DNA of 50,937 nt from a virus (Duplodnaviria > Heunggongvirae > Uroviricota > Caudoviricetes), in the IMG/VR virus record IMGVR_UViG_2541047814_000001; one strand, written 5' to 3'. Below, piece after piece: positions 1,969 to 46,406 of this stretch. The notes under the pieces were generated by a model that was not told the origin of the DNA, made no database searches, and saw only the letters and a program-made list of their open reading frames with translations. The position numbers were made by a program, and so were the translations under genes. Each line of letters opens with the position of its first letter. Position 1 is the first letter of the stretch.

Positions 1969-2177
1969 CAACCGCAGCACGTTCTTGCTTAAGACGTGCT
2001 GCGGCATAATCCCAATGATTACTCCCTGACAGGGTTCGTAGGCCACTCAATATCAGGTGCAGTTGATGTATCAACACGGTTCAGCAACACCCGATACTTT
2101 TTCCAGGCTTCCAGCAATGAGGTTTCTTCCTCCGTTGCAATTTCCAGATCTGCAGCATCCTGAAGCGGCGCAATATG
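1969..2177. repeat. Direct repeat copy 2 (tfa 3' end and hairpin gcagcacgt-N11-acgtgctgc at 1974-2002)
   Basis: Matches 919-1127; the hairpin lies between the convergent methyltransferase and tfa genes. Confidence 0.8.
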
Positions 2178-2603
2178 CTCACTGGCTACCTGCATCAGGT
2201 TGTTTTTTGTTTCTTCCGCCTCCCGGATCCGGAACAGTTTTTCTGCTTCCGTATCCTTCACCCAGGCTGTGCCGTTCCACTTCTGAAACTCCCCTTCCGG
2301 CGATAACCAGGTAACATTTTCCGGTAACGGACCGAGTTCAGAAATAAATAACTCGTCCCCTGACGCTACGTCATAAACCGTTTTACCCCGATGGTCTTCA
2401 ACGAGATGCCACGATGCCTCATCACTGTTGAAAACAGCCACAAAGCCAGCAGGAATATCTGGTGGTGCAATATCGGTACTGTTTGCTGGCAGACCTGTAT
2501 GAGGCGGAATATATGCGTCACCTTCACCAATAAATTCATTAGTTCCGGCCAGCAGATTATAAATTTTTATGGTCCGTGCTTGTTCACTCATTCTGAATGC
2601 CAT
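2019..2603 (-). CDS. tfa: Tail fibre assembly protein Tfa (194 aa)
   Basis: Immediately downstream of stf with ATGA overlap; conserved Tfa C-terminal region; lambda gene order. Confidence 0.85.
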
Positions 2604-6450: not shown

Positions 6451-9400
6451 TCAGCTAATCGTGATGCCTGCAGTGGCTTTCTTCATCACCACAACCAGCA
6501 AATCGCTGATACTTGCTGTGGGATACCAGTTATTTACCAGCCATGCTGACACCGAAAACTCCAGTGTCATGTGACCGTGACCGGCAGGCATATCAATAAC
6601 ACCACTGTAAATCAGCGTATTATCCAGCGCGGTACGGTTATAAATTTCAGCACCGTTTTTCCGCACTATCAGACGGCATGAGGAGTAAATATCAGTATGC
6701 TCTTTCTCATGTTTAGCGCCGCTGAATGCCACCGCCGGAATAACAATCTGCCGGTCAAACGGCTGATCGTCATAAACCCTGACGGTAATGGTTCCTGATG
6801 GCCACCGCTCCGGTGCACGGGAGTCCCGGGGGAAAGCTTTGCCCACTGTTTTAACGAGATCGCCTTCAATCTGGTTCGCGGACAATTTTCCCAGAACCCG
6901 ACAGTTCTCGTTAATCGTGACGTTGTTGAGCGTCCCGGAGTTCGCATTCACGTTACCGCTGATATCGGCATTTTTCGCCGTCAGCCGCCCGTCCGGTGTC
7001 AGGGAAAATGCCGGAGGATTACCGCCGCTGGTAATGGTGGGAGCCGTCAGATATTTCAGGAACACTTCATTCATAAATATCTGATCGCCCTGACCAACAA
7101 ACATCGGCTTTGTGTTGCCATTCGCAGGATTAATCATCGCAATCCTGTCTGCCGCCAGCAGCACCTGACTCTGCATTCCTGCTGGCGTATTCTCAATACC
7201 GGCACCGATACCCGCAATATAAAGGCGTCCGTCCTGCATCTGCTGCAGTTTCACGGCCCACATGCTGTTCAGGTTATTATTTGTATCAACCTGAACTTTC
7301 TGTATCTGCTGGATTGCCGCACTCTGATTTTCCAGTTTTTTATTGACGGTCTGCGTGATTTCATTGCTGACATTCGTAATGGACGTCCTGATTTCAGCCA
7401 GGTCCGGCGCAAGCTGACCGTTATCAATCTGCGTCCACAGCTCCTGGGCCAGATGTGTTTTCCCGATTTCTCCTTTGAAAAAATCCAGGTAACCTTCCGC
7501 ATCATCGCTCGCCCGACCGACAGCCTCCACGAATGCCGATTTGCCAACAGTATTCACACTGCGGATATAAAAATAATAATCATGGCCCGGTTTGATATTG
7601 ATACTGGCAGCTATCCAGTACAGCGCCGAGCCAAGATAGCGGGCTGCGGTTTCAACCTGCCTGATATCCGCAATCCGCTTTTCCGAGAACCAGAACTCAA
7701 ACTGTACCGTCGGGTCATAAACGGCAAGATGCGGCGTGGCGGTTATCTGAAAATAGCCCGGCGTCAGCTCAATCCGCGACGGTGCTGCCGGTGCGGCAAT
7801 CCGGAAGGTGGTGGTGGCAGGTTCACCCTGCTGGCCATAGCTGTTTATCGCCCGCACCGTCAGGGTGTATTCCCCGAGCGGCAGGCCGCTGAAACGGTGC
7901 TCCGTGTCTGCGGTGATAGCGGTGGTCACCAGTCTGGCATCCGTTCCCTTACCACTGGTCAGGCGCAGACTGAAGCGCACACCCTTCACCACCCGCGGCG
8001 TGTCCCATTTCGCCTGCGCCAGATACTGGCCGTCAGCTGCGCTCACCTCCACCGTCAGGTGCTGCACTGCCGGTGGGATGACGCTGTTCAGGGAACCTGA
8101 CTGCGGCTCAAAGCGGGCACCGTTATCCACGATGGCTTCTTTTTCCGGTACGTGCTGCACCGCCGTGATGGCAAAGGTGCCGTCCGTGTTTTCCCGGACG
8201 GAGACACAGCGGAACAGGCGACGGCGCAGTGACGGCAGGGAGAGTCCCCACACCCCGTATGTCTCCACACCATCAGGCAGGGTACTGACCTGTATCCGGT
8301 CCGGCGCGGGGTGTTCGGTGATGTCCACACTCACTGGCTTACCGCTGCCGTTAATCAGGTTCACCGTGGCGGCACCGGTCTCCGGAAGTGTCACTTCACG
8401 GTCCAGCGTCAGGGTGCGGGTGGCAGCATCAATGGACAGGACACGTCCGCCGGTCAGGGTCCCGGCATAGTCGTTATCACAGATTTCAATGATGTCACCG
8501 GGTGTGTGCCGCAGCCCCTGAGACCCGAGCGTGAAATCCACCGTCTGCGTTTCCAGCAGTTCGGTCTTTATCACCCACAGTCCGGCACGGTGGGCCTGAC
8601 CGCGGCTGGTACAGCCGAACGCGTCCATCTTCAGCAGGTTGCGTCCGTAGCGCAGTATGGCTTCCGGGTCTTCCACCAGTTCCGTGGAGGTCTGCCAGCC
8701 GTTCTGCGGGTCGGTGTAATTCACCTCCACCGCCGTGTGCCGGTCCTTCAGGGCACTGAAGCTGTAGCGGAATCCCACGCCGTTATCATCCACCACCACA
8801 TCGCTGTTGGTGTACGGCCACACCACATCCGACGGGCGGTCCTGAACGAACGTCAGCGTCTGACCGTTCCATACCGGCATACAGCGCATCGCAGAGCAGA
8901 AATCACTGAGAACGTCCCACGCCTTACGCTGTTGTGCCAGGTACGCATTAAAGGTCATCCGCGGCTCGGTCCCCCCGAAACCATCCGGGACCGTCTGATC
9001 GCAGTACTGCCCGATGGCATACAGCGCCCACTTGTCCACATCCGCCGCCCCCAGACGTTTTCCCATGCCGTAGCGCGGGTGAGTCAGCATGTCCCACAGG
9101 CACCAGGCCGGGTTGTTGCTGTATGCCGGTTTCAGACTGCCGTCCCAGATACCACTGTACGTGCGTTTTTCCGGGTCATAGTTTGACGGCACCTGGATGA
9201 TACGACCGCGGATATGGTAGTTCACCGTCATCTGCTGGCCGCCGAACTGCTCCGCATCCACCTGCAGCCCCACAATGGCCGTGTTCGGGTAGCACTGTTT
9301 CACATCGATGATTTCGGTGTATGACGACCACAGCGTCTTATTCTGCAGCTGGTCCGTGGTGCTGTCCGCCGTCTCCCTGACCATCCGGATGTTAAAGGGC

Positions 9401-9924
9401 CGGGGAGGCAGATTATCCAGAATCACCGAGGCCAGGAACTGTGAGGTGGTCTTGCCGTTAATGGTGACGTCCTTTTCTGTCACCCAGTTACCGTTACGCT
9501 GTAACTGAATCAGCAGGCGGACGGTTGCCGGGTTACGGTCACCCTTTGAGGTGGTCTCCACCAGTGACTGCACCCCGAAGGTAACCCGCAGGCGGTCAAT
9601 GTTCGCGGACGTAATGGTGCGCGTCACCGGTTTTGCCTTCGTCACTTCCACGCCCAGTCCGGTTTCAGCTCCGGAGGACTCAAAGCCTTCCGGTGGTGTC
9701 TGCTCCTGCTCCCCGGCACGCCAGACCGCGGTCACACCGTGTATCACGGGATTACCGTCCGTGTCCGTCAGCGGGGTTTTGTTCACCAGAATACTCTGCA
9801 GTCCCTTCACCGGACCTTCTATCGGTCCCTCACCAATCGCATCAATCACACTCATCATCTGCGTGGATTTGAGATTATCCTTCGCCTCACGAGGCGTGTG
9901 TGCCTTACCGCCACCTTTTCCCAT
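6451..9924 (-). CDS. J: Host specificity / central tail fibre protein J (1157 aa)
   Basis: N-terminus [37 protein letters not shown] typical of lambda J; size and position; GGGGAAGG RBS upstream. Confidence 0.9.
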
Positions 9925-10027
9925 ACAGCCTTCCCCTGAATAAATTAACCGCCACTTGCCATTCCGTACAGAAGTCGGATATCCTTCGCCCGAAAAGCAT
10001 GAAACACATTTCTGCCATGCTAAAGAG

Positions 10028-10064
10028 AAACCCCGGTATCAGCAGATACCGGGGTTTTCTTTCA
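10028..10064. terminator. Strong hairpin (AAACCCCGGTATC-agca-GATACCGGGGTTTT) with T tract, in the I-J intergenic insertion
   Basis: Perfect 13-bp inverted repeat read in sequence; T-rich on both flanks. Confidence 0.55.
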
Positions 10065-10129
10065 TGCCCACCGATAATCCTGTTGGTTAAAACCGGTAAT
10101 GGCATAAAAATTCTGAATATCTTCACATT

Positions 10130-10157
10130 TTCACACACTGACTGTGGCGCGTATAAT
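10130..10157 (+). promoter_or_regulatory. Candidate sigma70 promoter (TTCACA - 16 nt - TATAAT) pointing antisense to the late operon
   Basis: -35 at 10130-10135 and consensus -10 TATAAT at 10152-10157; no ORF with start codon downstream before the terminator at 10223-10262. Confidence 0.35.
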
Positions 10158-10222
10158 TTCTCTGCGTTAATTTTTTTGTCGTGATATAAGAATAATTCCT
10201 TACACTTAATCTTCGTAACTCT

Positions 10223-10262
10223 CCCGCAGTTCCTGTCCGCGATCACTGCGGGATTTTTTTAT
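10223..10262 (+). terminator. Rho-independent terminator (CCCGCAGT-loop-ACTGCGGG + T8) on plus strand
   Basis: 8-bp stem followed by ATTTTTTTATTCTTTTT; the T tract follows the hairpin only on the plus strand. Confidence 0.6.
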
Positions 10263-10267
10263 TCTTT

Positions 10268-10948
10268 TTACCCCTGCCGCCCGATAACCACGACCTTTCC
10301 GCCCCCGCCTTCATCACGGGTGCTGATGTCCTGGGATATACGGCGGGAGCCAACCAGCATTTCCCCGTAAGGCACCGGCATCGGGTTCCCCTGGGCAATC
10401 ATGTTATCCAGCGAGGAAAAGTACGTGTTCTGTCTGCCGTTATCCGTTGCGCGGTAATCCGGTGTTTTTGCCTTCGGGGCCAGCATCTGGGCCACTCCGC
10501 CCAGTATCATGCTGGCACCCAGTGAAAACAGCATCGTGGTGGCAGAAAAACCACCGGCACTCAGGGCTGTACCCCATAACGCCATCGAGCCTCCGGCCGT
10601 GAAGAAAGAGCCCACGATGGCTGCCGCCCCCAGCACAATCTGCAGTCCACCCTTTCCGGCCCCGGCCAGTCGCGGCACAATGTGGATGACCGTTCCCTCA
10701 CCCAGCTGTTCGTGAAGACGGGCATACACCGCCTCCGGTGCCGTGTCATCACCGGCAATACGTATCTGGTACCAGCCTTCGTTCATCTGACGGCGAAAGC
10801 CCGGCATCTGCATCGACAGGGCGCGAATGGCTTCCGCTGCCGTGTTCACATACAGGCTGAGGCGGCGGCCAAATCGTTGCAAATCCCCGTGAAGGCAGAT
10901 GCGTGCCAGTGGCGGTGACGCCAGACAGAATGCGTTCGTCGTTGCCAT
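10268..10948 (-). CDS. I: Tail assembly protein I (226 aa)
   Basis: MATTNAFCLASPPLARICLHGDLQRFGRR... and C-terminal ...QNTYFSSLDNMIAQGN... match lambda I; overlaps the 3' end of K by about 100 nt. Confidence 0.85.
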   Translation of the reverse strand: MATTNAFCLASPPLARICLHGDLQRFGRRLSLYVNTAAEAIRALSMQMPGFRRQMNEGWYQIRIAGDDTAPEAVYARLHEQLGEGTVIHIVPRLAGAGKGGLQIVLGAAAIVGSFFTAGGSMALWGTALSAGGFSATTMLFSLGASMILGGVAQMLAPKAKTPDYRATDNGRQNTYFSSLDNMIAQGNPMPVPYGEMLVGSRRISQDISTRDEGGGGKVVVIGRQG

Positions 10949-15197: not shown

Positions 15198-16049
15198 ATC
15201 TCACACCTCCCGGAATCCCCGCTGAAGCCATCATTAATGCGGCATCATCCACCATGACATCCGCCACATCCGCAGACGATAAAATATCGCGCCCTCCGTC
15301 CCCACCGAACCGGACGCCTCCGGCAAGTCCTGCCGCTTTCTGCATCAGCATTTTGTCCTCATCCGGCCTCTCCACCTGCTCTTCCTCATGCCGGGGGACA
15401 AGCAGACTGAAATCAGAGGGATGCATATCCGGATCGCAAAAAAACAGGCTGAGTACAGCGTACGTCAGCCCGGAAAAATGCATATCCAGCTGGGTATCCT
15501 GAAAATAATGCGTGCGGTAAAAACGGTGCCAGTCGGCATATTCGGTGGATGTCATCCCGGCAAGCATGGCGCGCCAGTCGGGTCTCCCCATCTCACGCGC
15601 CAGTCTGAGGGCAAAGTTCAGCTCGCCGTCGAAGACTTTCCCGCAGAAAAATCATCATCAGTCAGCGTGTTATTTTTCGCCACTTCAGTAATATCAGTAT
15701 CCGGACGAACAGCTTCGATCATCCCGGACAGGCACAACACCACGTCTTCCGCCCGGGCAATGGCATCGGCAGGCCAGGTGGTGAGCACTTCCTGCTCTAT
15801 CTTCATCACGGCCTCATTCATTGACGGTGACTGCGTTTTCTGTGGATGGTTATGCCACAGGGACATCGCCACCAGAAACGCGCCGGTTCTGACGAGATCT
15901 TCCACGCTTACCTGCAGGTTGCCGCAGGATTCTGCCTGTTCTGCACGCCGTTTCAGGAGGGCAAGATGCTCGATACGCTGCAGCGCAGACAATTCGGAAA
16001 GCGTGACAGACACACCGTTATATTCAAATTGTTCTGTTTTCAGAAACAT
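15178..16049 (-). CDS. T: Tail assembly chaperone G-T fusion made by programmed -1 frameshift
   Basis: Slippery heptamer GGGAAAG on the minus strand (plus coords 15626-15632) near the end of G; T-frame ORF 15178-15591 continues in the -1 frame, as in lambda. Confidence 0.7.
15618..16049 (-). CDS. G: Tail assembly chaperone G (143 aa)
   Basis: Position between V and T; contains the slippery site near its 3' end. Confidence 0.85.
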   Translation of the reverse strand: MFLKTEQFEYNGVSVTLSELSALQRIEHLALLKRRAEQAESCGNLQVSVEDLVRTGAFLVAMSLWHNHPQKTQSPSMNEAVMKIEQEVLTTWPADAIARAEDVVLCLSGMIEAVRPDTDITEVAKNNTLTDDDFSAGKSSTAS

Positions 16050-26048: not shown

Positions 26049-26473
26049 CGGGAATCCTGGAGACTAAACTTCCTGAGAAAGAGGTAAACAGGATGACTAA
26101 AAATACTCGTTTTTCCCCCGAAGTCCGTCAACGGGCAGTCCGTATGGTTCTGGAAAGTCAGAGCGAATATGACTCACAATGGGCGACAATTTGTTCCATT
26201 GCTCCAAAGATTGGCTGTACGCCGGAGACTCTGCGTGTCTGGGTTCGCCAGCATGAGCGGGATACCGGGGGCGGTGATGGAGGGCTCACCACCGCTGAAC
26301 GTCAGCGTCTGAAAGAGCTGGAACGTGAAAATCGTGAACTGCGCCGCAGTAACGATATCCTTCGCCAGGCTTCCGCTTATTTTGCGAAGGCGGAGTTCGA
26401 CCGCCTCTGGAAAAAATGATGCCACTGCTGGATAAGCTGCGTGAGCAGTACGGGGTCGGACCGCTATGCAGCG
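26049..26473 (+). mobile_element. Truncated IS3-family element (IS629-like): left IR, orfA and the first ~20 codons of orfB
   Basis: Left end TGAACCGCCCCGGGAATCCTGGAGACTAAACTTCC; orfA complete; orfB frame ([19 protein letters not shown]) breaks after about 20 codons. Confidence 0.7.
26093..26419 (+). CDS. IS3-family transposase OrfA (108 aa, IS629-like)
   Basis: [23 protein letters not shown]... with HTH and leucine zipper typical of IS3 OrfA. Confidence 0.8.
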
Positions 26474-34016: not shown

Positions 34017-34209
34017 GAATCCTCCCGGGCGGGATAATGTTGTGAGTCAGATAAGGAGCAGGCTGAAGTCCGGAAGTTACAGGACAATGGCAGAAGGGAG
34101 ACTACAGCCCGCAATTCGAAAAAGACCGCGCAGTTGCGCAGAGTGATTACTATGGGGTATTATTCGCCAGCTGAAATATTACTTCACGTTTTATTGTTTA
34201 TTCCTTGCC

Positions 34210-34238
34210 GCCCGCGTCTCCCAGCGCGGGCTTTTTTT
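34210..34238 (+). terminator. Plus-strand rho-independent terminator (GCCCGCG-loop-CGCGGGC + T7)
   Basis: 7-bp GC stem and T7 read directly; a candidate promoter (TTGCGC - 18 nt - TATTAT, 34134-34163) lies about 50 nt upstream on the same strand. Confidence 0.55.
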
Positions 34239-34241
34239 GTC

Positions 34242-34430
34242 CATAAGAAAGCCCCTCCGGAGAGGGGCTAAAGCCGCGTATCTGTATCATCATGCACATG
34301 GTGCCGGGTGCCTCCCGGTGAGTTCAGCCCGGTGCCACTAAACCCGCGTCATTCTCGTTTTGATAATCAGAGATTATACCGTCACCAGTCGCCCCTCCGC
34401 TCAGGGGGATTCACCATGCGAAATTTTTTT
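34242..34430. repeat. Direct repeat unit 1 (about 180 bp, imperfect) with GCCCCTCCGGAGAGGGGC hairpin
   Basis: Shares blocks with 34735-34915 (aaagcccctccggagaggggct, ggtgccgggtgcctcccggtga, cccctccgc.cagggggattcaccatgc, tgaattgtgag). Confidence 0.6.
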
Positions 34431-34734
34431 AACAAATGCCCAGTCTGACAGGCAACTGTCAACTTACTGAATTGTGAGCAACATAGCATTTAACGGGGAA
34501 CCTGTTTTCTGCAGTAAAAAGGCCCACCGGAGCGGATGGGCCTGGAAGGATAGCGGTCATGTGATGCCGGTTTCCCGGTAACTCAGCACCGGTATCTGAG
34601 TCAACGTTTTCTCTACTGGGTCATTTCCGATACGCCCTGCCTGCTGACAGGCTTTCATCACATCTGAAAATATAGCACCCTGACTGATACTGTAGTACCT
34701 AAGGTTCCAGAAACTGTGATGTATCCGGCACAGA

Positions 34735-34915
34735 AAAGCCCCTCCGGAGAGGGGCTGGAGAGTGGCGCTATGTGCCATTGCATGGTGCCGGGTGCCTCCC
34801 GGTGAATTCAGTACCAGCACCTGAATCCGCGATTATCCCATATACCTACTCGCTGATTGCCCCTCCGCACAGGGGGATTCACCATGCCAGTTTCTTTTAA
34901 CAAACTCCCCGCAAA
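34735..34915. repeat. Direct repeat unit 2 (partner of 34242-34430)
   Basis: Same conserved blocks in the same order and orientation. Confidence 0.6.
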
Positions 34916-34989
34916 CCAGACAACAGTCAACCGCCTGAATTGTGAGACATTTAAAAAAAGCCCGCAAAAGCGAGCCAGGGAAAATAAGT

Positions 34990-35067
34990 GTGGCGCGTTG
35001 TACTGGATTCGAACCAGTGACCGATTGCTTAGAAGGCAATTGCTCTGTCCGGCTGAGCTAACAACGC
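34990..35067 (-). tRNA. tRNA-Arg (anticodon UCU)
   Basis: Minus strand folds as cloverleaf; anticodon loop CTTCTAA; T-loop TTCGAAT; 3' CCA encoded. Confidence 0.8.
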
Positions 35068-35080
35068 AGGATACAGATAA

Positions 35081-35157
35081 TGGACCGCCTTCGGGGACCC
35101 GAACTCCGCGCAACCAGCTTCGAAAGCTGGCGCTCTTTCCTGATGAGCTAATGGCGG
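35081..35157 (-). tRNA. tRNA-like gene, probably Arg (anticodon read as UCG); atypical T-arm
   Basis: D-arm GCTC...GAGC, anticodon stem CCAGC/GCTGG with loop TTTCGAA, CCA end; T-stem has one mismatch and T-loop is TTCGGGT. Confidence 0.45.
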
Positions 35158-35164
35158 TATGTGA

Positions 35165-35240
35165 TGGTGGCCCTTGCTGGATTTGAACCAGCGACCTGGC
35201 GATTATGAGTCGCTCGCTCTCACCACTGAGCTAAAGGGCC
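35165..35240 (-). tRNA. tRNA-Ile2-like (anticodon CAU; ileX/ileZ type)
   Basis: GGCCCTTTAGCTCAGTGGTGAGAGCGAGCGACTCATAATCGC...GGGCCACCA; near-canonical cloverleaf, 76 nt. Confidence 0.85.
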
Positions 35241-39450: not shown

Positions 39451-39606
39451 TTACTCCTCAGGTTCGTAAGCTGTGAAGACAGCGACCTCCGTCTGGCCGG
39501 TTCGGAGTCGTACCTCGCAGAGGTCTTTCCTCGTTACCAGTGCCGTCACTATGACGGTTAAACAGATGACGATCAGGGCGATTAACATCGCCTTTTGCTG
39601 CTTCAT
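39451..39606 (-). CDS. hok: Hok/Gef-family type I toxin (51 aa)
   Basis: MKQQKAMLIALIVICLTVIVTALVTRKDLCEVRLRTGQTEVAVFTAYEPEE is a near-canonical Hok sequence; the in-frame upstream extension is probably leader, not coding. Confidence 0.85.
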   Translation of the reverse strand: MKQQKAMLIALIVICLTVIVTALVTRKDLCEVRLRTGQTEVAVFTAYEPEE

Positions 39607-39843
39607 AGCCTGCTTCCCCTTGCCTTTCGGCACGTAAGAGGCTAACCTACATTTGTGAGACATAGATTGGGCCTCAGATTAATGTTAAGCGTCTTGCAGG
39701 ACGCGAAATGTTAACTGGGGCTTTTCTCTATCTGCCTTTCAGTGTTCATGCCTGAGACAGATAGCCTCAAGCACCCGCAGCCATTCTACTTAACTCACGT
39801 CACCTCGCCAATATGAAATCAATCAGAAAGGTGATCCATAAAA

Positions 39844-46348: not shown

Positions 46349-46406
46349 TTTCTGGTGACGTTTGGCGGTATCAGTTTTACTCCGTGACTGCTCTGCCGCC
46401 CTTTTT
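46349..46406 (+). ncRNA. dicF: DicF sRNA (53 nt plus T-tract terminator)
   Basis: TTTCTGGTGACGTTTGGCGGTATCAGTTTTACTCCGTGACTGCTCTGCCGCCC followed by TTTTT matches the DicF sequence as I recall it; lies upstream of dicB as in Qin. Confidence 0.65.

Follow-up and report, generated by a model that had tools for sequence, protein, structure and literature searches.

A lambdoid prophage carries a predicted small RNA gene of the PasB/EcOnc22-24 family between tail genes I and J

What occupies the gap that separates the tail genes I and J in a lambdoid prophage? In IMG/VR record IMGVR_UViG_2541047814_000001, a DNA of 50,937 nucleotides that we analysed over its full length and refer to as the window, the prophage is lambdoid with its late operon on the minus strand, and I and J are separated by an ORF-poor (open reading frame-poor) intergenic gap at 9925-10267 (343 bp, not assigned to a strand), with a GC content of 42% compared to 57% for J and 61% for I. 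A first-pass annotation of the sequence had described an AT-rich insertion of about 340 bp, in agreement with these values, and had proposed that it encodes a candidate prophage small RNA (sRNA). This proposal held, since the locus is homologous to the experimentally detected sRNAs PasB and EcOnc22-24 and belongs to a family that was already known. The element in the window is thus real and, its family having been detected twice by experiment, not of a new kind. The gap contains the sRNA gene together with a separate hairpin.

Our favoured interpretation, which we judge to be highly probable, is that the part of the gap next to I, ~170 bp long (about 10100-10267), forms an autonomous, moron-like sRNA gene of the PasB/EcOnc22-24 family, whose product would act in trans in the lysogen in an Hfq-dependent manner. 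The locus shows the family's sequence-level features, namely its place between I and J on the strand antiparallel to them, homology of the RNA itself, and a promoter and U-tract terminator of its own. Experiments on the homologues have established that they are expressed, how long they are, that they bind Hfq and depend on it, and that they contact many RNA partners. For the window, homology, synteny and an intact promoter and terminator are known, and from there we infer expression, seed, targets and regulation.

The closest point of comparison is PasB. Using Hfq RIL-seq (ligation and sequencing of interacting RNAs), Pearl Mizrahi et al. (2021) described five prophage sRNAs in the enteropathogenic Escherichia coli (EPEC) strain O127:H6 E2348/69 (PMC8550237). 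PasB (E2348CN_0006), one of them, is an 83-nt RNA on the minus strand of NC_011601.1, from 1466343 to 1466261, for which the Northern probe was AATCCCGCAGTGATCGCGGAGCT (table S6, PMC8550237). It was verified by Northern blotting, displayed log2 changes of -6.8 and -2.4 in a delta-hfq background and took part in 37 RIL-seq interactions (tables S2, S5 and S6, PMC8550237). Furthermore, it is abundant in lysogens without induction (PMC8550237), and the RIL-seq criteria class it as an sRNA, with partners mostly in coding sequences (CDS) or 5' untranslated regions (UTRs) (table S6 legend, PMC8550237). The E2348/69 genes I (end at 1466255) and J (start at 1466496) both lie on the plus strand, which places PasB in the gap beside the I stop codon and opposite the late operon, the same position and orientation as at the window locus.

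The two loci also share most of their sequence elements. A promoter block of ~70 bp is near-identical in both, including both TTCACA repeats and the -10 hexamer, with two differences that flank the -10 (one on the spacer side, the other just after it). The terminator stem and the U7 tail are identical, and both RNAs have the GCGUUA 5' end, the U-run, the A-rich tract and the AUCUUC block. Over the RNA body, identity to PasB is ~71% (63/89 aligned columns), with indels, and the longest common exact word is 25 nt. The loci differ in the variable block (UUCCUUACAC in the window, CUCCUUCACA in PasB), in the terminator loop (14 nt in the window, a 5-nt insertion relative to PasB in the alignments) and in the module on the side of J, which is 176 bp long with a 13-bp hairpin in the window and short with a different hairpin at the PasB locus. 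The PasB Northern probe matches window positions 10233-10255 at 20/23 bases; the probes for PasA, PasC and PasD found no match in the window at up to three mismatches.

A second set of homologues comes from the enterohaemorrhagic E. coli (EHEC) strain O157:H7 Sakai. EcOnc22, from prophage Sp15, was reported as a peak in Hfq-CRAC (cross-linking followed by cDNA analysis) that gave an RNA of ~85 nt on Northern blots and was destabilised in delta-hfq (Tree et al. 2014, table S2, PMC4104026). Sp14 and Sp11 carry homologues of it, EcOnc23 and EcOnc24 respectively (table S2, PMC4104026; see also Sy & Tree 2021, PMC7873438). We located each of the three CRAC peaks within the 240-bp I-J gap of its own prophage, on the strand opposite the late genes, and found the sequence of this gap to be a third allele of the same RNA. 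The coordinates of Tree et al. refer to an older version of the Sakai genome, and the shift was derived from two anchors, AgvB at 1.94 Mb (~+128 to +146) and an STnc100 copy at 3.49 Mb (between +99 and +227). Applying a shift of ~+128 puts the three peaks at J-start +151 to +212, inside the predicted RNA, which extends from J-start +144 to +236. EcOnc22-24 are Hfq-bound RNAs of ~85 nt; with the window RNA they share the place in the I-J gap opposite the late operon, the scaffold and an upstream TCTGA-N6-TCACA motif. They differ from the window RNA in the -35 region (TTCCGG), the -10 hexamer (AATAAT), the variable block (CUCCAUAACG) and the terminator loop. Sequence comparison therefore indicates that PasB (EPEC; 2021, 2026) and EcOnc22-24 (EHEC; 2014) are one family, residing in the same I-J gap. 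This goes beyond the literature searched: the link between PasB and EcOnc22 is drawn neither in table S6 of 2021 (PMC8550237) nor in the 2026 preprint (bioRxiv 10.64898/2026.05.13.724894), and no sRNA is described at the I-J locus of uropathogenic E. coli (UPEC) or its strain CFT073.

To place the window RNA within this family, we collected loci from IMG/VR in two scans, one with a 30-mer from the promoter and one with the pattern ATCTTC-N20-48-CTGCGGGATTTTTT. The resulting 182 usable loci fell into at least 11 clusters at 90% identity. PasB-type loci were the most numerous (77), followed by the window type (53), a 'GGGCGUUACAG' type (about 20) and the EcOnc22 type (15), and several rarer allele types made up the remainder. 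A covariance model built from 11 allele representatives, from which window-type alleles had been excluded, gave a full-length match in the window at 10162-10260 on the plus strand (74.3 bits, E = 4e-12). As the model contained no window-type allele, this match identifies the window RNA as a homologue of the family. In the alignment of representatives, the RNA begins with a conserved GC(G/A)UUA 5' end, a U-run, a variable stretch and an A-rich AAN tract; it continues with a variable CU-rich block, the motif U.AUCUUC.U, a short variable stretch, and an invariant terminator stem with a variable loop and a tail of U6-8.

None of this is captured by current RNA family models. With Rfam 15, the whole window searched at the gathering score gave nothing in the I-J gap, and the gap searched at E values up to 10 gave a best hit of 19 bits (E = 0.48), which we regard as terminator-driven noise. 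The Rfam scan proposed in the first-pass annotation thus returned no family for the gap at the gathering score. The PasB locus and the EcOnc22-24 loci had no match in Rfam 15 either; the family is absent from this release.

The family is widespread in E. coli, in sets of genomes that depend on the allele. The full 343-bp gap matched 1669 of 5426 complete E. coli genomes in a nucleotide search and was unannotated in all of them. With the 83-nt PasB sequence as query, 956/5426 of these genomes matched, none below 90% identity. With the window allele's 89-nt body, 800/5426 (~15%) matched; this set, different from that of PasB, includes CFT073, where the copy lies between I and J and is unannotated. 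In 615 genome records, this 89-nt body is at least 99% identical. For the published census of PasB, the 83-nt sequence was searched by blastn with a word size of 28, and hits had to cover more than 75% of the query (Zhu et al. 2026, bioRxiv 10.64898/2026.05.13.724894), and the variants were reported to have 'only a few nucleotide differences' (bioRxiv 10.64898/2026.05.13.724894). When PasB was compared to the window by megablast with word size 28, no match was found; at word size 11, the alignment comprised the 25-nt terminator alone, with a total query cover of 58%. A scan of genome contigs with the promoter 30-mer, taking one genome per species, gave matches in E. albertii and in one short contig assigned to Streptomyces, and in nothing else. 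The latter (L093, NZ_JBHTEB010000006.1, a contig of 3408 bp labelled Streptomyces flavalbus) carries an exact copy of the 30-mer, almost certainly due to contamination of the assembly with E. coli or phage DNA. Two IMG/VR contigs displayed two different sRNA alleles each, one with a tandem pair ~225 nt apart (L123, 4419-4692, minus strand) and another with copies ~670 nt apart (L131, 323-1042, minus strand), showing that the locus can hold two sRNA genes.

Transcription of the window RNA would start from a sigma-70 promoter, TTCACA-16-TATAAT, at 10130-10157 on the plus strand (-35 at 10130-10135, -10 at 10152-10157). The first-pass annotation had placed it at exactly these positions, and a consensus scan scored it at 11/12 positions. 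In diverged alleles, the spacing between the conserved 5' block and a -10 hexamer (TATAAT, AATAAT, TATCAT or CATAAT) is unchanged. Both the promoter block and the terminator are kept in 170-180 independent phage or prophage loci, at a fixed distance from the conserved RNA 5' end, and because of this conservation and spacing we consider them to be more than chance occurrences. Judging from the -10 hexamer and the 5' block, the probable start of the RNA is about G10164, at the conserved GCGUUA and 7 nt past the -10 hexamer. The predicted primary transcript therefore spans 10164-10260 on the plus strand (~97 nt), within the covariance-model match. If it were processed, or started, at a 5' end of the E2348/69 type, its extent would be ~10180-10260 (81 nt).

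Within this RNA, a U7 run near the 5' end (10171-10177) coincides with the U-run found at the same place in most alleles of the family alignment. It is followed by the A-rich tract AUAUAAGAAUAAU (10184-10196), which contains AAG-AAU-AAU and is a candidate (ARN)n site for the distal face of Hfq; such a tract is present in 14/14 allele representatives. The adjoining CU-rich block UUCCUUACAC (10196-10205) differs between allele clusters and is a candidate for an allele-specific seed. Elsewhere in the family, its place is taken by CUCCUUAACA, CUCCAUAACG, CUCCCUGUGG or UUCUCUAUAG, depending on the cluster. The block has anti-Shine-Dalgarno character, with UUCCUUAC complementary to GUAAGGAA. Next comes the conserved block UUAAUCUUCGU (10206-10216), predicted to be single-stranded and containing the invariant U.AUCUUC.U of the alignment; Zhu et al. 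proposed the PasB seed at the equivalent position (bioRxiv 10.64898/2026.05.13.724894). The invariance of AUCUUC is partly due to ascertainment, as the second scan used ATCTTC; loci recovered in other ways, namely those of the promoter-based scan and of Sakai, agree with it. The RNA ends in an intrinsic terminator at 10222-10260, with a GC-rich 9-bp stem (UCCCGCAGU/ACUGCGGGA; arms 10222-10230 and 10245-10253), a 14-nt loop and a T7 run at 10254-10260 that is read as U7. The other strand has no T-run, which bears out the earlier description of a terminator for the plus strand only (10223-10262). Across alleles, the terminator stem is invariant and the loop variable. The CU-rich stretch was unpaired in single-sequence folds, and RNAalifold applied to 14 allele representatives returned the terminator as the only common structure.

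A conserved feature upstream of the promoter is the motif TCTGA-N6-TCACA at 10112-10127 on the plus strand, 5' of the -35, which resembles a pair of CRP half-sites. It is found in 170/182 loci, with invariant half-sites, five different spacers and a fixed distance to the RNA 5' block, even where the -35 has diverged; a regulatory function is predicted on these grounds. A CRP-activated promoter is expected to have TGTGA-N6-TCACA centred near -41.5, -61.5 or -71.5. The centre of the window motif is 44.5 nt before G10164, taken as the start, which is not a canonical CRP position. PasB is higher in overnight static LB (lysogeny broth) than in exponential DMEM (Dulbecco's modification of Eagle's medium), and its shifts are opposite to those of Spot 42 (PMC8550237). 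Together, the half-sites and this growth-condition pattern suggest catabolite control, a circumstantial lead given the non-canonical centre. Twelve window-type copies (L099, L106, L133, L136, L141, L144, L147, L153, L161, L166, L173 and L175) have neither the promoter block nor TCTGA-N6-TCACA, and an unrelated upstream sequence (...GAAAAGAACGGCACATCCTCCCT) takes the place of the block. These copies may be silent or driven from elsewhere.

We propose the following mechanism for an sRNA gene of this kind. The sigma-70 promoter would give rise to an RNA of ~80-97 nt that ends at the intrinsic terminator, convergent to the phage late operon. The sRNA would be expressed in the lysogen and would act in trans by base pairing with the help of Hfq, which it may contact through the 3' hairpin with its U7 tail and through the A-rich (AAN)n tract. 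The unstructured CU-rich stretch UUCCUUACAC-UUAAUCUUCGU (10196-10216) would then pair with mRNAs of the host or the prophage, probably at purine-rich ribosome-binding regions, as suggested by the anti-Shine-Dalgarno character of the CU-rich block. Since the variable block differs between alleles, the targets of the window allele probably differ in part from those of PasB and EcOnc22. In the window, the 22-nt complement of the unpaired RNA region has no second site and occurs at its own locus only. In its layout, the predicted RNA also resembles ChiX-type ('class II') Hfq sRNAs, which have an A-rich AAN tract, a CU-rich unstructured seed and a terminator with a long U tail. PasB is likewise strongly Hfq-dependent; there is no sequence homology to ChiX, and we treat this as a resemblance only.

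The same unit agrees with the concept of the phage moron (Juhala et al. 2000, as cited in PMC4104026). It is an autonomous unit of promoter, cargo and terminator with 37% GC against 57-61% in the flanks, and lambda has no such unit. Like morons, it appears as an extra segment of lower GC content, inserted between conserved late genes and independently transcribed as judged from its own signals; unlike classic morons, its cargo is a non-coding RNA, antisense to the operon.

Several observations weigh against this interpretation. The evidence for expression comes from homologues only. The targets of EcOnc22 are given as unknown in the review literature, and no member of the family has a validated target. 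The reported 5' end of PasB, set from read coverage, is ~15 nt further downstream than the -10 hexamer would predict, so the true start may differ or the RNA may be processed. No compensatory changes were found among the 14 representatives, so that structure beyond the invariant terminator stem is unsupported. The mapping of EcOnc22 depends on an inferred coordinate shift, and strand, size and the triplicated homologues agree with it. Finally, the BLAST criterion of the census does not class the window allele as a 'PasB variant', and it is a homologue outside the published set.

Other roles for the gap have to be weighed against the same data. The RNA could act mainly as a cis-antisense RNA, pairing in leaky or induced late transcripts with the I-J spacer, to which it is perfectly complementary, and leading to RNase III cleavage, altered J expression or the silencing of leaky tail genes, or the late mRNA could mop up the sRNA after induction. 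The gene is indeed convergent with the late operon and lies wholly in the transcribed spacer, with the I stop codon 8 nt from the predicted 3' end of the RNA; its position is kept in ~180 loci despite allele turnover, and a terminator-like hairpin on the late strand always adjoins it. The duplex would end ~240 nt from the ribosome-binding site of J, however, and would cover no coding sequence. The earlier prediction of a plus-strand transcript of roughly 70-100 nt, antisense to the late operon, stands in as far as homologues were detected at the same place and on the same strand, and needs correcting in that the RNA would be antisense to the untranslated I-J spacer alone, without any CDS or ribosome-binding site. 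With 37 trans partners of PasB in RIL-seq, its abundance in lysogens without induction, and a permissive insertion site accounting for the position equally well, we consider a mainly cis-acting role unlikely, the two roles being compatible with each other. A role as an sRNA sponge, in which the main partner would be a titrated core-genome sRNA instead of mRNAs, appears quite unlikely. The precedent is set by AgvB and AsxR, short Hfq-binding anti-sRNAs of EHEC prophages located at the PR' moron site, where convergent sRNA pairs occur (Tree et al. 2014, PMC4104026). They share with the window sRNA their short length, prophage origin, ARN motifs and a variable 5' part on a conserved terminator, and the RIL-seq chimera between PasB and the pasA region is an RNA-RNA contact beyond mRNAs. 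They differ in being sited downstream of Q/PR' (~34.1-34.9 kb in the window), away from the tail operon, and in belonging to different sequence families. An anti-sRNA of the AgvB/AsxR type was rejected because of the different site; neither RF02702 nor RF02703 matched in the gap. In addition, no core sRNA complementary to the conserved or the variable block was identified, and the RIL-seq partners of PasB, itself classed as an sRNA, are for the most part CDS or 5' UTRs.

Two further possibilities would deprive the gap of an active RNA. This allele could be an inactive relic, with the gap serving merely as a terminator or insulator pair between I and J. The homologue-based expression evidence leaves room for this, as do the 12 related loci that lost the promoter block and the probably defective state of the window prophage, which carries an IS-type (insertion sequence-type) frameshift element. 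We nevertheless find it very improbable: the promoter fits the consensus at 11/12 positions and its upstream block is identical to that of the expressed PasB, the 89-nt body is preserved across hundreds of genome records, and a plus-strand terminator makes sense only with a plus-strand transcript. Least of all do we credit a small protein, encoded by one of the gap ORFs: 113 aa at 9905-10246 or 66 aa on the minus strand, or 94 aa at 9900-10184 on the plus strand. In support of such a product, one GenBank record, that of phage ASU11 (L091, ON416862.2), annotates a 66-aa 'hypothetical protein', ASU11_gp9c, at 8112-8312, over the J-proximal module and its hairpin and overlapping the J start; this is probably a false gene call, without family support. 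The three gap ORFs have no match to a Pfam or PHROG family, they run across the hairpin and the promoter, and related loci swap or delete these segments, with inter-allele indels that are not multiples of three and break the reading frame. A protein-coding gap was rejected for these reasons. RefSeq holds no annotation at the I-J gap in E2348/69, Sakai or CFT073. In line with the first-pass annotation, which saw no plausible ORF from promoter to terminator, the RNA contains no start codon of a plausible ORF.

The second hairpin of the gap calls for a different explanation. It lies at 10028-10064, is not tied to a strand, and is terminator-like in both directions, with an A-tract on its 5' side and a U-rich tract on its 3' side. 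Its arms (10028-10040 and 10045-10057) are complementary at 13/13 positions, as had been described before along with the flanking tracts. The hairpin is part of a segment of 176 bp next to J, module A (9925-10100), found at this locus only and with at least 99% identity in 1442 genome records. In E2348/69 and Sakai its place is taken by module B, which is short, unrelated and has a different hairpin. Module A was paired with PasB-type alleles at 43 loci and with window-type alleles at 33, and module B at 31 and 8 loci, respectively. As both modules pair with both major alleles, the gap is mosaic, with recombination taking place through the conserved promoter block.

Lambda itself has a hairpin at this junction. 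Contrary to the statement that the I stop and the J start abut there, the two are 60 bp apart (15444 and 15505), and the spacer (15445-15504; L191, NC_001416) contains the hairpin aaaaCCGCC-cgca-GGCGGttt. Read on the late strand, it is CCGCC-ugcg-GGCGG followed by UUUUGUCAUUU, ~25 nt before the J start. In all cases examined, lambda included, a U-rich tract follows the I-J hairpin on the late strand, which makes the hairpin a feature of the I-J junction, outside the sRNA gene. The promoter and two terminators of the first-pass annotation are accordingly to be divided: both hairpins are real, and of the two the sRNA gene includes the 3' hairpin alone. Lambdoid phages seem in general to have a terminator-like hairpin shortly before J, in at least three unrelated sequence versions. 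It is conceivable that it stabilises mRNA 3' ends or terminates transcription that is not modified by Q. Two module A loci from IMG/VR have precisely lost the 13-bp hairpin (CATTTCTGCC...GGGGTTTTCTTTCATG -> CATTTCTTTCATG, between short TTTCT repeats), showing it to be dispensable in at least some prophages. The 13-bp hairpin is a separate, lambda-like junction feature.

The genes on either side of the gap are both tail genes. The tail tip/host-specificity gene J (6451-9924, minus strand) encodes a product that begins with MGKGGGKA and has GpJ domain families in Pfam, six GpJ/phage tail-tip domains scoring above the Pfam cut-offs. The tail assembly gene I (10268-10948, minus strand) matches PF06805 Lambda_tail_I with 60.8 bits, as well as phrog_32 and phrog_4244.

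Further RNA features were found elsewhere in the window. A weak second match of the sRNA model lies at 34152-34238 on the plus strand (25.3 bits, E about 0.006), with a hairpin GCCCGCG...CGCGGGC followed by UUUUUUU. It has no Rfam match, and abuts and converges on an STnc100 copy at 34239-34448 on the minus strand, the layout of the convergent pair described by Tree et al. at the PR' moron site; the match may simply be where an upstream plus-strand gene terminates. Two STnc100 copies (165 and 136 bits) lie beside three tRNA genes, the group occupying 34239-34448, 34726-34916 and 34994-35240, all on the minus strand, sRNA and tRNA cargo of the kind usual around Q/PR'. Zhu et al. relate STnc100 to PasD and describe IS009 as typical of PasB flanks (bioRxiv 10.64898/2026.05.13.724894); the IS009 match in the window (2062-2260, minus strand, 225 bits in Rfam) fits the latter. 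Rfam also identified the sok antitoxin RNA of a hok/sok-type module (39601-39776, minus strand), DicF (46350-46401, plus strand) and an ALIL frameshift pseudoknot (26374-26473, plus strand), which indicates an IS3-family insertion in the prophage.

Taken as a family, these RNAs vary far more than is implied by the few nucleotide differences described for PasB. The window allele is common (about 15% of the complete E. coli genomes), and the uropathogen CFT073, an extraintestinal pathogenic E. coli (ExPEC), is among its carriers, yet it was missed by a search with the PasB sequence. A prediction made from sequence alone recovered a real, experimentally supported class of prophage sRNA. Conserved blocks are now distinguished from variable ones, which points to the seed and to a possible activator site and makes allele swaps straightforward. 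As a tentative and by no means assured proposal, PasB and EcOnc22-24 would be one family built on a conserved scaffold, from an activator-dependent promoter to the terminator, into which a CU-rich seed cassette is exchanged. Its clusters, at least 11 in number, would be shuffled with the J-proximal modules, a large share of carriers would have been missed by the census, and the ExPEC allele, found in CFT073 and many human clinical isolates, would have targets distinct from those of PasB and EcOnc22. In this manner, each lambdoid prophage may bring its own host regulon.

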